A stretch of DNA of 52,739 bases, taken from IMG/VR virus record IMGVR_UViG_3300049489_000263, positions 1 to 52,739 of that record; one strand, given 5' to 3'. The DNA is from a virus (Duplodnaviria > Caudoviricetes). Below are positions 1 through 49,637 of this stretch, piece by piece; position 1 is the first letter of the stretch; each line of letters begins with the position of its first letter. The notes under the pieces were generated by a model. It was given only the letters and a program-made list of their open reading frames with translations. It was not told the origin of the DNA and ran no database searches. The position numbers were made by a program, and so were the translations under genes.

Positions 1-87
1 GTAGGATAATCCTACACTCACGCACGGCGTCTTGACTTCTGACCACTTAAGTCCCGCCTAGCCTTGCCTGATACTTGATATCAAGAA

Positions 88-133
88 TGTGTGTGTGTGT
101 GTGTGTGTGTGTGTGTGTGTGTGTGTGTGTGTG
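88..133. repeat. (TG)23 dinucleotide microsatellite
   Basis: 46 nt of perfect alternating TG read directly; flanked by TGATAY-N3-RTATCA sites at 69 (perfect) and 132 (near-perfect). Confidence 0.95.
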
Positions 134-298
134 ATCTCGGATATCAGGAGTTGTGTGTCCAAACCGGGCCGCGTTGTGTGGGAGTACACGATGGCTAGAT
201 TTGGGCCAAACCGGGTCGCGCTGTGCGGGAGTACCCTAGGGCAGCGCCAGGTCGCACGGGCGTCGAACTAACACGCAAACAAACCCACCCAGGTCGAT

Positions 299-396
299 CA
301 ACTATTAACATGGGTCAGTCTCGACTCTCATCCAACTATTAACATGGGTCAGTCTCGACTCTCATCCAACTATTAACATGGGTCAGTCTCGACTCT
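299..396 (+). repeat. 34-bp tandem repeat x2.9 (CAACTATTAACATGGGTCAGTCTCGACTCTCATC), iteron-like
   Basis: Units start at 299, 333, 367; identical, no spacers. Confidence 0.92.
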
Positions 397-621
397 GGTC
401 GCCTAGCCAGGTCTCGACACAAGTCAACGTGATCGTGCGTTAACTTTGCCAGGCCGATTTCAGAGTATCAGGCTTGACGCCTGCGCCCCGATCGTGAGAC
501 TACGTGCATGACGCCAAAGGCCCGACTTGAGCGACCTGCCGACTGCAACGCTAGTTGCGGGCGGGCCGCCATAAGTGGCCAAGCGTTAACAAACCCGGCT
601 CAAGCCGGAAGGACGTGCACC

Positions 622-1530
622 ATGGCTCTTCGCATCACCCTCGCAGCCCGTGGCTCTGACTCCAAGGCGTACGCCTTGGCGACTCTGCTGCCCCTCGCCC
701 ACAACGTCATCCGGCGCGGCTTCGACATCTCAGAGCCGCTGACGGTCGGCGCCGACGACGGTACCGGAACCTGTCCGGTGGCCCTGGTCAAGGCACTGGT
801 CGGCGCCAACCTGACCGACAAGGGCGAGCCGAAGCCACTGCCACTGCCTGAGGCGGCCGACGGGGACCAGCTCAGGAAGCATTCCGACGAAGCGCCGACC
901 CGTGTCCCGGCCCTCGTTGCGCTGGAACGCTTGGAAAACCTGCCGGAGGAATGGGCGGAACTGACCGGCCGTGTCGTCGACGGCGCCCGGCGCACCTGCG
1001 CCGTCATCCTCGCCTACGCCCTGACCGGCCGTTGGTTCGCGCCGGCCATTGTCGAGACCGACAAGACCGGCCTTGCCGTGTCCGTGGCAAAGAACATTGC
1101 CAAGACTCTTTGCGTCCGTCAGGATTGGGAGGGTGCCGCCCGCGCCCTGGTTCTCGACACGGCCACGCCCTCGCCGCTGACGATGTCCTACGTGATGTCG
1201 GCCTTGTCGCTGACCCATGGCGCTGCGACTGCCGTCAAGGACGCTGTGATCCTGCTGCGCCGCTTCCCGGCCGTGAAGATCGTCGGGATGAAGGTGTCCA
1301 AAGAGTGGCGCGCCGGACTCGTCATGGCGAAGAATGCGCCGGACGAGACGGAAGCACAGCGCATCATTGACGCCATCGTCACGGAAGGCGGGAAGGATGT
1401 CACGCTCGCCAAGGTGGCGGATTTCCTCGCCGAGCAACCCGGCGCGTTTGCGAAGCGCATGGTGGACGCGCTGGCCACGGACAATTGGGAGGAGATCAAA
1501 TCGGCCTTGTCCAGCGTTTGCAAGGCCTGA
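622..1530 (+). CDS. Divergent ParB/Srx-like protein
   Basis: ATG 622 after GGAAGG RBS; GRVVDGARR resembles the ParB_N (I/V)DGxRR motif, followed by a candidate HTH (LTMSYVMSALSLTHGAAT); strong codon bias. Confidence 0.55.
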   Translation: MALRITLAARGSDSKAYALATLLPLAHNVIRRGFDISEPLTVGADDGTGTCPVALVKALVGANLTDKGEPKPLPLPEAADGDQLRKHSDEAPTRVPALVALERLENLPEEWAELTGRVVDGARRTCAVILAYALTGRWFAPAIVETDKTGLAVSVAKNIAKTLCVRQDWEGAARALVLDTATPSPLTMSYVMSALSLTHGAATAVKDAVILLRRFPAVKIVGMKVSKEWRAGLVMAKNAPDETEAQRIIDAIVTEGGKDVTLAKVADFLAEQPGAFAKRMVDALATDNWEEIKSALSSVCKA

Positions 1531-1623
1531 TCGGACTACGGCAAGGGCCATCGGCCCTTGCCAATGGGCCGCTAGACAACCTCTAGCGGCCCATTGGCAC
1601 TAACGCCAACGAGGAGTCAAACC

Positions 1624-1872
1624 ATGAACCTACAAATCGCGCTCCCAGGCATGAACCTGTCCGGTATAGGCTCCCTCCGCCTGGGCCATGCACCGGCCGA
1701 TGCTGGCTTGCTTGTGTTGGACCACGTCCGTGTCCTGCGGAATGACATGCTGGACGCTTTGAAGTCCGGCGCTGATTCCCGTACCATCGGTGCCCTGGCG
1801 CGCCGACTGGCCCAGACGAATCACCTGGCGGCGAAGTGCATGCGTATTGCGGGACCTATCCAATGGTCCTAG
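1624..1872 (+). CDS. Hypothetical protein
   Basis: ATG after GAGGAG RBS; co-oriented with upstream gene. Confidence 0.6.
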   Translation: MNLQIALPGMNLSGIGSLRLGHAPADAGLLVLDHVRVLRNDMLDALKSGADSRTIGALARRLAQTNHLAAKCMRIAGPIQWS

Positions 1873-2051
1873 AAGCACTGTTGCAAACCGGACCTGGCCT
1901 GTTCCAAACCGTGACGCTAAGCGTCCCGGGCCGGCTGGCCGTCGAGCGGATACGGCTGATTTTGAGGCCGCAAGGTGAGATTCTGGAATTGATACACGTA
2001 CCACACGAACACACCCGGACCATAGGGCACAAGAGAGGACCAGGATCCTAA
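1863..2051 (+). CDS. Hypothetical protein
   Basis: ATG overlaps end of upstream gene. Confidence 0.35.
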   Translation: MVLEALLQTGPGLFQTVTLSVPGRLAVERIRLILRPQGEILELIHVPHEHTRTIGHKRGPGS

Positions 2052-47981: not shown

Positions 47982-48174
47982 CAGCCTCCTCGAACAACCT
48001 GAGTTGTTCGTAGCCCAGGATCATCGCCTTGATCCAGGTATCGCAATCATCGAATGAATCTGCGACACCTGGCGGCCGGATGCTCAATCGCTCACACGCA
48101 CGCCAGATCACATACTCTGACGTGCGGAAGTCTGGATAGATGGGTCTTACGCTTGACCCACTCCAGCTAAAAAA
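47953..48174 (-). CDS. Tail assembly chaperone -1 frameshift extension (gpGT-like)
   Basis: Slippery T TTT TTA at 48168-48174; -1 frame open SWSGSSVRPIYPDFRTSEYVIWRACERL...NQV* to 47953. Confidence 0.8.
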   Translation of the reverse strand, partial: FFSWSGSSVRPIYPDFRTSEYVIWRACERLSIRPPGVADSFDDCDTWIKAMILGYEQLRLFEEAGGNDAQNQV

Positions 48175-48605
48175 CGCTTAGTCGCTTCCTCGATACGTTT
48201 GGTCGATAGGCCGTTAGCGTCAATAGCCGCATTGATGATCGCTACGATTTCGGTGTCTGAGAACCCCGAAGCCTTGAGATCGGCGGAGTAGTTCTTCCAG
48301 GTACCTGGATCAGTAGTGACCGAGTCCCATTCCAGACCTTCGGTGGCCCGCAGCGACTCGATGATGATCCACGACATGCGTGTCTCAGCGTAAGTTGTTA
48401 CGGCCGCTTGATACTGAGTATCATTCACGTCGCGGGCAGTAGTGCCATCCTTATACGCGATGACAGGAGCTTCTGGCTCCTTAACGATGGACTCGAAACG
48501 TGATAGATCAACGACCCCACACCTAAAAACCAAGTCGCCATCCTTGCGTGGGATAACGACGACTTCTGGGGCAGGCTTGTTGATGGGCTTACCAGCGAGC
48601 TTCAT
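48147..48605 (-). CDS. Tail assembly chaperone (gpG-like)
   Basis: Between tail tube and TMP; ends KRFLAGVGQA over the slippery site. Confidence 0.8.
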   Translation of the reverse strand: MKLAGKPINKPAPEVVVIPRKDGDLVFRCGVVDLSRFESIVKEPEAPVIAYKDGTTARDVNDTQYQAAVTTYAETRMSWIIIESLRATEGLEWDSVTTDPGTWKNYSADLKASGFSDTEIVAIINAAIDANGLSTKRIEEATKRFLAGVGQA

Positions 48606-48618
48606 AGGAGCCTTTCTG

Positions 48619-48646
48619 AAAAGCCGGCGGGTAAGGACCCGCCGGC
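48619..48646 (-). terminator. Intrinsic terminator/attenuator after major tail gene
   Basis: GCCGGCGGGT-CCTT-ACCCGCCGGC-TTTT on - strand. Confidence 0.75.
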
Positions 48647-48656
48647 GTTAGTGGTT

Positions 48657-49157
48657 TCAGGGTGACTGAGCAGCACGAACCGTGGTCGCGTACTTGGCAT
48701 TGCACTTGCCAGAGCAAGTGATCTGACCGGCACGCGGATCATGGTCGAACGATTCCCACCGGAAGTCAGGCAGGGTGATCGTTTCCTTGTCCGAAGACGA
48801 GCAGTTCGGCTCGTAGGTGACTTCGATATCCACGGCATACGGGCGGCAAGCGTCCGAGTCCGTCGAAGTCCAAGCCGAAGCCGCGCCGATCTTCTTGAGA
48901 GCATCCTCAACGCTGGGAGTGCCAGTCGTCGAGAGAGCGCCCTTGATGTATTCCCAATTGAAGGTGAAGTTAACGTCCATCGGAACGTCATCGCCTTCAC
49001 GCACCTCGTCGATCACGCCTCGATCGAGCAGATACTCCATGTTCCGCTTCTCGGAGAACGTCAGGTTGCCATCACCGATCTTGATGGTCAACTCGTGCGG
49101 AGTAGTTGCGCCGTCCTTGATCTTCATAGTGCAGTGTTTGAGACTAAGTCTGGCCAT
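48657..49157 (-). CDS. Major tail tube protein
   Basis: 166 aa beta-rich, strong codon bias, position before chaperone and TMP. Confidence 0.8.
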   Translation of the reverse strand: MARLSLKHCTMKIKDGATTPHELTIKIGDGNLTFSEKRNMEYLLDRGVIDEVREGDDVPMDVNFTFNWEYIKGALSTTGTPSVEDALKKIGAASAWTSTDSDACRPYAVDIEVTYEPNCSSSDKETITLPDFRWESFDHDPRAGQITCSGKCNAKYATTVRAAQSP

Positions 49158-49160
49158 GCG

Positions 49161-49637
49161 TCATACCTCCAGGTACATTTCGTAGTGAGCCTCCACAGTA
49201 GCCTGCAACAATGGAATTGCTGGGTCGATTTGACCGAAGTGATTCGTTTGAATCCTCTCTCGGTTCCTAATATCCTGGATTAACTCCAGGCAGCCTAGTA
49301 GCGTCTGCGTGTCATCGGTACTTGCACCGTACTTATACACTGGAATGGTGTCGGTGAAGGCTGCGGCCACGTCACCGACCATTCTATGTATAGTGTGATA
49401 CGTAGTATCAGTGATCACGCTTTGCGTCAAGACGCTAAGCTCGATGTATAGACGCCAGAAGTCCTTGCTCTCCTCGGTGTAGTATGGGCCATCCATACGT
49501 ATTTCCACCAAGTTCTCAGGCTCTGCGGGTGTTCGACTTTGACCTTCGATGAATACTTGATATTGCGTCAGCCTATCAGATAGGTGCTTACTAATTGATG
49601 CAAATATCCAACGAGCCCAGTGAGGATTTGCACTCAT
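49161..49637 (-). CDS. Tail terminator / completion protein
   Basis: Size and position just upstream of tail tube. Confidence 0.6.
   Translation of the reverse strand: MSANPHWARWIFASISKHLSDRLTQYQVFIEGQSRTPAEPENLVEIRMDGPYYTEESKDFWRLYIELSVLTQSVITDTTYHTIHRMVGDVAAAFTDTIPVYKYGASTDDTQTLLGCLELIQDIRNRERIQTNHFGQIDPAIPLLQATVEAHYEMYLEV

Follow-up and report, generated by a model that had tools for sequence, protein, structure and literature searches.

The whole of IMG/VR record IMGVR_UViG_3300049489_000263, a viral metagenome record of 52,739 bp (Duplodnaviria; Caudoviricetes; classed as linear, estimated completeness 58%), was analysed and is referred to here as the window. A 15-bp palindrome, TGATAY-N3-RTATCA, is repeated throughout this sequence, mostly inside open reading frames (orfs), and palindromes that differ in sequence and spacing are dispersed in the same way through related phages. 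Judged from sequence comparison, these palindromes are on balance probable binding sites for a dimeric, phage-encoded protein of the ParB family with a helix-turn-helix (HTH) domain. Two such proteins, ParB-A (20011-20811) and ParB-B (24810-25793), are encoded in the window, and the likelier reader of the sites is ParB-B.

Palindrome copies in the window

Nineteen perfect copies of TGATAY-N3-RTATCA are present. The original prediction, made by a model from the sequence alone, had named 18 of them, all with matching coordinates, and the copy at 48409-48423 is additional to its list. Its uniform-base estimate was about 0.01 copies expected by chance; dinucleotide shuffles give a mean of 0.01 (largest 1; 0/100 reach 19). 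With up to one mismatch allowed there are 48 copies (29 with exactly one), against a shuffle mean of 0.41 (largest 5), and the reversed, non-complemented pattern does not occur in the window. The spacing is strict: N3 gives 19 copies, while any other spacer from 0 to 15 gives no more than 2 each, and everted and direct arrangements of the half-sites are not enriched (≤3 copies).

Perfect sites in the window (no strand assigned)
69-83, intergenic, near the left contig end, with a one-mismatch copy at 132-146
2168-2532, cluster of five sites: 2168 perfect; 2253, 2316, 2414 and 2518 with one mismatch each
3944-3958, within the PD-(D/E)XK nuclease-like orf 3457-4176
11284-11298, intergenic, retained in the 80%-identical relative G001
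11794-11808, orf 11676-12122, identical in G001
16943-16957, orf 16602-16982, arms retained in G001
19809-19823, flanked by the start of polA and the stop of ParB-A, changed at two arm positions in G001
23869-23883, orf 23655-23978, identical in G001
24798-24812, overlapping the ParB-B stop codon
27722-27736, within the primase-helicase gene 26311-28968, identical in G001
29997-30011, within the dCMP-deaminase gene 29933-30355
33611-33625, orf 33295-34146 (DUF6171)
35030-35044, orf 34143-35270, identical in G001
37389-37403, 1236-amino-acid orf 35279-38989
38619-38633, same 1236-amino-acid orf 35279-38989
39126-39140, orf 38986-39795
39593-39607, orf 38986-39795
48409-48423, orf 48147-48605, identical in G001
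49396-49410, orf 49161-49637

The excess also holds against a codon-preserving control, as the original prediction would have it. A synonymous shuffle within each gene, checked to leave all proteins unchanged while altering 19.5% of bases, gave 6.08 perfect copies (sd 0.88, max 9; 0/300 reach 19), and the core TGAT-N7-ATCA was seen 38 times in the window compared with 12.7 (max 19) after shuffling. The residue of about six copies is inflated, because copies in unshuffled intergenic or overlapping DNA stay in place by construction. The same shuffle applied to two relatives gave 102 observed copies versus 31.9, and 67 versus 17.7.

On a crude orf map 43 of the 48 copies lie within orfs and five are intergenic, in keeping with the earlier claim that most copies are in coding sequence. 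Those embedded in orfs use the two frames that avoid TGA as a stop, with a single exception in a doubtful orf of 66 amino acids, and so encode different peptides, which indicates that they are selected as DNA. Copy density drops from the replication module to the structural module, from 16 to 5 per 10 kb in relative G006; in the window there are 12 copies per 10 kb at 20-30 kb and none in the last bin.

Selection on the palindrome arms

Relative G001 has 79.6% identity to the window over 40,935 aligned bases, and 37 of the 48 sites could be aligned (11 could not). Over these 37 sites and their 12 specified positions, 32/444 arm positions differ (7.2%), compared with 27/111 spacer positions (24.3%) and 467/2202 positions in the 30-bp flanks (21.2%). 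The motif is under purifying selection, with conservation in the arms and not in the spacer. At the sole degenerate arm position the two bases (Y6/R10) are complementary in 10 of the 19 perfect sites, i.e. at chance level, and among sites with two mismatches compensation is seen in 2/33. Both observations favour half-sites that are read on the duplex by the two subunits of a protein dimer and speak against a hairpin.

Variants in related phages

A search with polA identified 31 related viral loci (41-94% identity). The exact TGATAY-N3-RTATCA motif is common only to the window and its nearest relative, and many of the others are enriched for variants that retain its outer core. Twenty whole records were fetched as a first set, and these, the window and L024 (22 records) were scanned for dyads. 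TGAT/GATT-type palindromes are strongly enriched in 12/22. Over all sets of relatives, the lineage-specific half-site variants are GATT, GATG, GATA, GAGT and GGTT, with palindrome lengths of 13-15 bp. Counts of TGAT-N6/7-ATCA versus the reversed control in whole records are 136/0 (G006, 94 kb, 97% complete), 76/2 (G007), 36/0, 35/0 and 35/5, and in further records 33/1, 29/3, 25/0, 19/0 and 15/0.

Palindromes of individual relatives
G006, TGATAYYRRTATCA (14 bp)
G007, TGATTCTAGAATCA
G005, TGATTTA-N-TAAATCA (15 bp)
G002, G004 and G010, GATT-N4/N5-AATC
G013, AACTTAAGTT, different from the others

A second set of loci, found via ParB-B, adds GATG-N4-CATC, TGAGTT-N2-AACTCA, CTTC-N3-GAAG and GATT-N3-AATC, and a third set adds GGTT-N5-AACC. 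The dyad scan found no dispersed palindrome in G011, G014, G018, G019 or G020 and a weak one in G012 and G017. The dispersed palindrome is a family trait, the sequence and spacing of which change between related phages. The G+C content of the relatives spans 0.33-0.63, and they therefore probably infect different hosts.

Three palindromes were considered and excluded. In G016 (L090, 89.7 kb) CAGAA-N2-TTCTG (CAGA-N4-TCTG) has 28 copies, 23 of them in the last 10 kb, and is local; TAAGCTTA of G015 and TAAATTTA of L188 are possibly unrelated AT-rich palindromes. Non-palindromic repeated dyads, which may be tandem repeats, are strongly over-represented in G014 and G017 (CCGA-N8-CCGA; CACG/GCAC). 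G011 has an identical 16-mer at positions 98 and 76771, i.e. at both record ends, as would be expected of a terminal repeat or of a complete genome with circular permutation.

The two ParB-family proteins

20011-20811, minus strand: ParB-A, ParB_N domain and ParB/KorB-type HTH, with box II (GFRR) and box III (ENMNR) intact and recognition helix SPGWVQIR
24810-25793, minus strand: ParB-B, ParB_N domain, HTH and helical C-terminal region, with box II GLHR and box III MNVHR

ParB-A has Pfam matches to ParB_N and HTH_ParB (the KorB domain match is sub-threshold) and aligns to Spo0J, Noc and KorB. ParB-B, with an ATG at 25793 preceded by AAGGAG, matches ParB_N (PF02195) with 37.9 bits against a cut-off of 26.3 and ParB-like PHROG families with E 2.5e-18. 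It has no match to the Pfam HTH_ParB model, and its residues 9-200 align by phmmer to Spo0J (1vz0) through the HTH of the latter. Its AlphaFold2 model (predicted local distance difference test score 85.4) has a ParB/KorB/Noc-like N-terminal domain and HTH and can be superposed on chains of ParB, KorB and Noc over about 200 columns, with template modelling scores, normalised to the target, of 0.61 for the KorB-KorA-DNA complex 8qa9 and 0.62 for Noc 7nfu. Only about 10 residues precede the first strand, and the HTH is followed by an extra helical region ending in a charged, Lys/Glu/Ala-rich helix of 55 residues. The original prediction had counted three ParB proteins; the third candidate, orf 508/622-1530, was rejected, as it has no Pfam, PHROG or Protein Data Bank match and aligns to ParB-B by BLASTP with E = 0.16 only, so that two remain.

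The arginine pair of box II (GxRRxxA) and box III (ENxxR) are the cytidine triphosphatase (CTPase) motifs of ParB proteins, and the box III Glu is required for hydrolysis of cytidine triphosphate (CTP). In ParB-A homologues box II GxRR is kept in 18-19/19 and box III ENxxR in 19/19. In ParB-B homologues the Gly and the last Arg of box II are present in 95/95, and the first Arg is replaced by His (80), Gln (12) or Tyr/Trp (3); in box III Glu is absent from 95/95, Asn is present in 95/95 and Arg is replaced by Lys in 67. Of the nucleotide pocket, ParB-B thus retains the Gly, the second Arg and the Asn. The missing box III Glu suggests that ParB-B is a stationary or hydrolysis-dead binder, which would explain a need for many sites in place of a single loading site with sliding, and ParB-A may be its mobile, sliding partner. 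Of the proposal that the palindrome is a genome-wide parS-like site for a phage ParB, the part concerning the sites is strengthened by their selection, their variation and their positional link to ParB-B (below), and the part that had the protein load as a CTPase sliding clamp has become doubtful, given that ParB-B lacks this Glu and one box II Arg.

Both ParB genes, SNF2, polA and primase are core genes of this phage family. Presence/absence profiling cannot pick the binder, because both ParBs are core genes; among G000/G006 gene families occurring in at least four records, none occurs in the motif-rich but not in the motif-poor genomes. Co-occurrence of motif and ParB, a check put forward in the original prediction, does not speak against the ParB link: no motif-bearing relative lacking the ParBs was found. 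Conversely, there are relatives with both ParBs and no dispersed motif.

The recognition region of ParB-B differs by motif class: WI(A/G)GRLSLNKLAS in the GATG clade, HRSPxWLxQRF in the TGAGT clade and KSxQWI(K/Q)(E/Q)RLGL in the GATT clade. The recognition helix of ParB-A, SRGWVQ(V/I)R, hardly varies between genomes of the GATT, GATG and GAGT types and those without motif, and no 7-nt-arm palindrome that could be a conserved parS for ParB-A is common to more than 3 of the 22 records. A residue-to-base code in which Tyr in the ParB-B 'NAYAL' helix corresponds to GATT, and Val, Gln or Ala to GATA, was rejected, as NAV also occurs with GATT and GAGT. The ParB-A homologue of G017 (L071:15816-17588) has 590 amino acids versus about 280, owing to some 300 additional residues near the N-terminus, which look like an inserted intein or homing endonuclease.

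Palindrome copies at the ParB-B gene

In the first set, a palindrome copy lies within -120 to +30 of the ParB-B start in 10 of the 13 motif-bearing records, compared with 7/13 for the divergent primase, 3/13 for ParB-A, 1/13 for polA, 0/13 for SNF2 and 0-1 for 12 other families. A copy at the 3′ end of ParB-B is seen in six to seven first-set records including the window, where, as noted in the original prediction, the perfect site 24798-24812 overlaps the stop codon of the gene. The second set serves as an independent test. For it, 80 loci were collected, of which 56 were long enough (24 of <9 kb were left unscanned) and 33, after exclusion of five loci on first-set contigs, had a top palindrome with p ≤ 1e-6; removal of five near-duplicates gave 28 dereplicated loci. 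A copy lies within -130 to +30 of the start of the ParB-B match in 23/28 (misses: L148, L166, L182, L184 and L190), where random windows predict 4.4 and 0/100,000 simulations reach 23; the corresponding count for other orf starts is 76/421. In the third set, both motif-bearing contigs (2/2) have copies 30-91 bp upstream of ParB-B. Copies at the ParB-B start are at 16-65 bp, often paired with one at about +20, and are not spread over the spacer of about 500 bp between ParB-B and primase. In motif-poor genomes, palindromes upstream of ParB-B are single-copy.

In the window itself the region between ParB-B and primase carries half-sites in other spacings:

25870-25881, no strand assigned, half-sites at spacer 0 (TGATAC/GTATCG), 77 bp upstream of the ParB-B ATG
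26278-26290, no strand assigned, half-sites at spacer 1 (TGATAC-C-GTATCA), upstream of the primase-helicase orf by 21 bp

All dispersed copies have spacer 3; these spacer-0 and spacer-1 pairs could therefore point to another way of binding, or to ParB-A or a further protein as an additional reader.

Across 32 upstream regions, the interval separating ParB-B from primase holds no conserved small orf; a KorA-like small orf was considered and rejected, as the apparently conserved orfs are antisense frames of the primase gene. A partner of this kind could be encoded elsewhere. G013 (L073:13586-14100) carries tandem AACTTAAGTT arrays with a 16-bp period directly upstream of its ParB-B homologue, and 27 loose copies of AACTTAAGTT in 32 kb. 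In the ParB-B/primase spacer of G007 (L042, ~10540-10740) a second operator, TGACAAA-N(1-3)-TTTGTCA, is repeated, and G011 has an imperfect operator of the TGACAAA type about 378 bp upstream of ParB-B and a perfect copy elsewhere, at 2023.

ParA, integrase and host DNA

The window is only 58% complete, but five of the relatives searched are 97-100% complete (G006, G012, G014, G015 and G020). The original prediction had seen no ParA, and this stands: family PF13614 is matched in 0/10 records, these five among them, and PF01656 in 0/5 (controls matched 14/14). PMC12704722 defines an N-terminal motif for binding of ParA, (L/F/I)G(K/R)G(L/F/I), which is found in 0/95 ParB-B and 0/19 ParB-A sequences. 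No tyrosine integrase (PF00589) is found in the five near-complete relatives. The lack of ParA, of its binding motif and of a tyrosine integrase makes classical partition unlikely.

Alignment of polA also identified 23 relatives in prokaryote assemblies, mostly Planctomycetota metagenome-assembled genomes (MAGs; Thermoguttaceae, Pirellulales), five of which (5/23) were too short for the palindrome scan. Nine of these distant relatives are in contigs of 137 kb-6.9 Mb and are therefore presumably integrated. No enriched palindrome is found in these nine (best p 9e-5). Eight of them have a homologue of ParB-A, of ParB-B or of both, and none was detected in L214. Three of the nine (L200, L202 and L212), all different copies of this phage family, lie in one 4.2-Mb Thermoguttaceae MAG chromosome. 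The IMG 'provirus' records G019 and G020 are motif-free, and the small contigs L192 and L195 are motif-rich. Dispersed sites thus appear to go with members not seen integrated, a correlation confounded by shared ancestry.

Within the MAGs that hold L192 and L195, motif copies are concentrated on the phage contig: in one MAG, of 3.4 Mb, 20 of 80 copies are on a phage contig of 39 kb, and in the other, of 3.2 Mb, the first 46 kb of a 64-kb phage contig carry at least 63 of 206. The dispersed sites set phage DNA apart from putative host DNA, the assignment of host by binning being unproven.

Gene content of the window

The G+C content of the window is 0.50-0.58. Megablast of 12 kb of it against a phage collection matched no cultured relative, and tblastn of its polA against the same collection gave distant matches only (best identity ≤29%). 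Genes identified besides the two ParBs are:

3457-4176, PD-(D/E)XK nuclease-like protein
4177-4962, ligase
7395-7826, endonuclease V-like protein
12888-13358, NYN-domain protein
15689-16024, VRR-NUC protein
17310-19613, family-A DNA polymerase (polA)
21280-23220, SNF2-like helicase
26311-28968, primase-helicase (DUF5906)
29430-29936, dNMP kinase
29933-30355, dCMP deaminase
30345-31205, plus strand, D12-class N6-adenine methyltransferase (Dam-like, orphan)
31765-32526, RNase T-like exonuclease
from about 35 kb onward, long orfs of tail type

A 'phosphoesterase' among the genes in the original prediction could not be upheld, orf 33295-34146 matching DUF6171 and orf 34143-35270 having weak matches only. 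Many small orfs have no family match and are untraceable between genomes. The sole Rfam match is one tRNA, a tRNA-Leu (anticodon TAG; 8942-9016, minus strand) within a 279-amino-acid orf of the crude map (8283-9122), which is probably not a gene because the tRNA sits inside it.

Comparison with known systems

The closest mechanistic parallels are KorB with its operator OB, on the IncP plasmid RK2, and Noc with its NBS sites. KorB is a ParB-family HTH protein and a CTP clamp capable of long-range silencing (PMC11790492). It binds one short palindrome found in many parts of a single replicon, its own operon among them, and is a global regulator; the palindrome here is likewise repeated across the replicon. 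An own-operon copy is seen in relatives (10/13, 23/28 and 2/2, above), the window having the spacer-0 and spacer-1 variants and the N3 copy on the stop codon. The differences are several. RK2 carries about a dozen OB sites, whereas this phage family has 19-136 per genome, mostly within genes. The partners of KorB are IncC, which is a ParA, and two clamp-lockers, KorA and TrbA, while here no ParA was found and no small partner orf is conserved between ParB-B and primase; ParB-B also lacks the box III Glu.

Noc of Bacillus, which nucleates on 16-bp NBS sites (PMC8429893), is likewise an orphan ParB paralogue beside a canonical ParB, without ParA function and with a palindrome scattered over the chromosome. 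However, Noc belongs to cells and is a CTPase that is targeted to the membrane by its N-terminus, whereas the N-terminus of ParB-B is short, and the sites here are on a phage replicon at a far higher density per kb. With canonical ParABS (Spo0J/ParB-parS) the phages share a ParB_N and HTH protein reading a palindrome, as is probable here, and sites at or near the parB gene, but no ParA was found, neither ParB has a ParA-binding motif and the sites cover the whole replicon instead of one centromere.

The nearest phenomenon among phages is that of Cluster O mycobacteriophages (e.g. Corndog), which carry >30 copies of an arm-N3-arm palindrome, TGTTCGGNNNCCGAACA (17 bp), across a genome of about 70 kb (PMC4351075). 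The repeat is described there as being of unknown function, in phages without integrase or parAB that encode a protein with a ParB-like domain (gp90); 24 of 34 copies in Corndog are between orfs or near their 5′ ends, and that report draws no link between repeat and ParB-like protein (PMC4351075). A re-count of Corndog 50-62 kb (L191) gave 10 copies in 12 kb, nine perfect and one near-perfect; one precedes the gp91-gp90 pair, lying 26 bp upstream of its first gene, gp91, and another follows gp90 at a distance of 135 bp. The window is alike in its arm-N3-arm design and number of copies (48 with ≤1 mismatch in 52.7 kb) but differs in that 43/48 are inside orfs. Furthermore, gp90 matches ParB_N only, with no HTH match, and the phages are unrelated, as the window polA has distant matches only in the phage collection.

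Stoperators, of which tens of copies of 13-14 bp occur over the ~50-kb genomes of Cluster A mycobacteriophages, are bound by a phage protein with co-evolving specificities (PMC6550527, PMC9283540). They resemble the sites described here in number and in co-evolution with the binder, but are asymmetric, oriented with transcription and read by the monomeric immunity repressor of temperate phages, while the sites here are palindromic and no tyrosine integrase is found in five relatives of 97-100% completeness. A phage ParB-like protein that activates thymine dioxygenases has no DNA-binding domain (10.1101/2025.08.14.668559), unlike both ParBs here, which have an HTH; none of the orfs scanned was recognised as a thymine dioxygenase. 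A full-text literature search, with subscription journals and supplementary files out of reach, returned no paper linking a phage ParB to genome-wide sites.

Proposed mechanism and alternatives

The enrichment, the selection, the lineage-specific variation and the positional link to the ParB-B gene are shown by the comparisons above; from them we infer binding itself, a stationary ParB-B and a purpose for the sites. Each TGATAY arm would be read by one HTH, leaving the 3-nt spacer unread, at sites that occur about once per kb in coding and non-coding DNA and are held there by selection. Once ParB-B is made, the whole phage chromosome, and not that of the host, would become a chain of nucleation points, and the copy at the start of the ParB-B gene would provide negative autoregulation. 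ParB-B would remain stationary or be hydrolysis-dead, with ParB-A, which has the CTPase motifs, as a possible sliding partner. The likely purpose would be to mark and organise extrachromosomal phage DNA, for example as a scaffold for replication or condensation, in KorB-like global control or in protection of self DNA. Overall, a link of ParB to the palindromes seems likely from the sequences.

A more far-reaching version is speculative, and we regard it as rather unlikely. Hydrolysis-dead ParB-B, nucleated about once per kb, might recruit ParB-A to form a genome-wide coat or condensate, a phage 'self-chromatin' separating extrachromosomal phage DNA from that of the host. Such a coat could help phage DNA to replicate, to segregate as a 'holocentric' episome or to escape nucleases; the rapid change of half-site and spacing between relatives would act as an identity barcode against cross-talk between co-infecting phages, and relatives integrated in host chromosomes would need no sites and hence lack them.

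Several observations weigh against a role for ParB-B as reader, or against parts of the mechanism. The site pattern in the first set was picked per genome, blind to ParB-B but after the fact. The ParB-A helix also shows some covariation, SRG changing to SPG/SGG in the GATA-type G000, G001, G006 and L167, and no simple residue-to-base code was found across ParB-B motif classes. In G011, which has no dispersed motif, the ParB-B recognition region is nearly identical to those of motif-rich G002 and G003. The window has no N3 copy upstream of ParB-B, only the spacer-0 and spacer-1 pairs. The ParB-B/primase intergenic region is a regulatory hub with other operator types, so the copy at ParB-B could serve another regulator. 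Condensation by a ParB relative cannot be assumed either, because KorB-CTP did not condense DNA in vitro (PMC11790492).

The alternative that another dimeric DNA-binding protein of the phage reads the sites, e.g. a small fast-evolving regulator or a domain of the primase-helicase, with the copy at ParB-B controlling early divergent promoters, is unlikely, though the least so of the alternatives. It would fit the copies at the primase start in 7/13 genomes, the other operators in the intergenic region, the many small orfs without family match that cannot be traced between genomes and the similar repeat of Cluster O phages, for which PMC4351075 describes no known binder. However, no G000/G006 gene family in at least four records tracks motif richness, no small orf is conserved between ParB-B and primase, and copies keep to 16-65 bp from the ParB-B start where they could be anywhere in the ~500-bp spacer. 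Loading at the palindromes and sliding by ParB-A (20011-20811), with ParB-B merely regulated by it, is less probable still. ParB-A has the ParB_N and HTH_ParB/KorB matches and intact CTPase motifs, is present in nearly all relatives and begins its helix with SPG/SGG instead of SRG in GATA-type genomes, and the two spacer classes that coexist in several genomes could reflect two ParBs; but its recognition helix is otherwise almost invariant across motif classes and motif-free genomes, only 3/13 genomes have a copy near its start, and a sliding clamp would not need a loading site about every kb. A host protein (global regulator, nucleoid protein or defence sensor) that the phage recruits or titrates, with variants tracking hosts, is improbable. 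Such a reader would suit the wide span of G+C content (0.33-0.63), with its probably different hosts, and a motif richness that varies independently of ParB presence. In two MAGs with motif-rich phage contigs, however, motif density on the phage contig exceeds that of the remainder about 30-fold or more. Phages of similar G+C content, whose core proteins are 50-60% identical, use different half-sites and spacings, and the regular presence of a copy at the ParB-B start is in keeping with a circuit internal to the phage.

The two remaining alternatives are both very improbable. Folding of single-stranded DNA or RNA into a hairpin or cruciform (hairpin promoter, processing site or priming signal) is geometrically possible as a 6-bp stem with a 3-nt loop, which to judge from the sequence could fold in either transcript. 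Yet Y6/R10 pair at chance level (10/19), every one of the 29 one-mismatch copies breaks a pair, compensation is seen in only 2/33 copies with two mismatches, arm sequence and not pairing is conserved relative to G001, and Rfam matches are limited to the tRNA. A target of DNA modification or a restriction-like activity is scarcely more credible. The window does encode a D12-class N6-adenine methyltransferase (30345-31205), and the arms contain GAT, but this enzyme is absent from motif-rich G006 (97% complete), has no homologue detected in the partial records G007, G003 and G005, and is present in motif-poor G011, G012 and G015; nor would a role as modification target account for the roughly 1000-fold enrichment of a 12-position palindrome or for its retention by selection.

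Implications

Orphan ParB-like genes are very common in phages, most of them without known role, and have been surveyed (PMC12704722); the available portions of that survey do not describe genome-wide sites. ParB-B and the 15-bp palindrome, with dozens of natural specificity variants, offer a testable pairing of protein and site, at a site density without described parallel among ParB systems. They also suggest a class of candidate binder for the Cluster O dyad repeats, unexplained since 2015 (PMC4351075). If the sites do mark or coat the phage genome, this would be a new way for a virus to distinguish its own DNA from that of its host, and ParB-B would also be a natural ParB acting through many stationary sites instead of by sliding.

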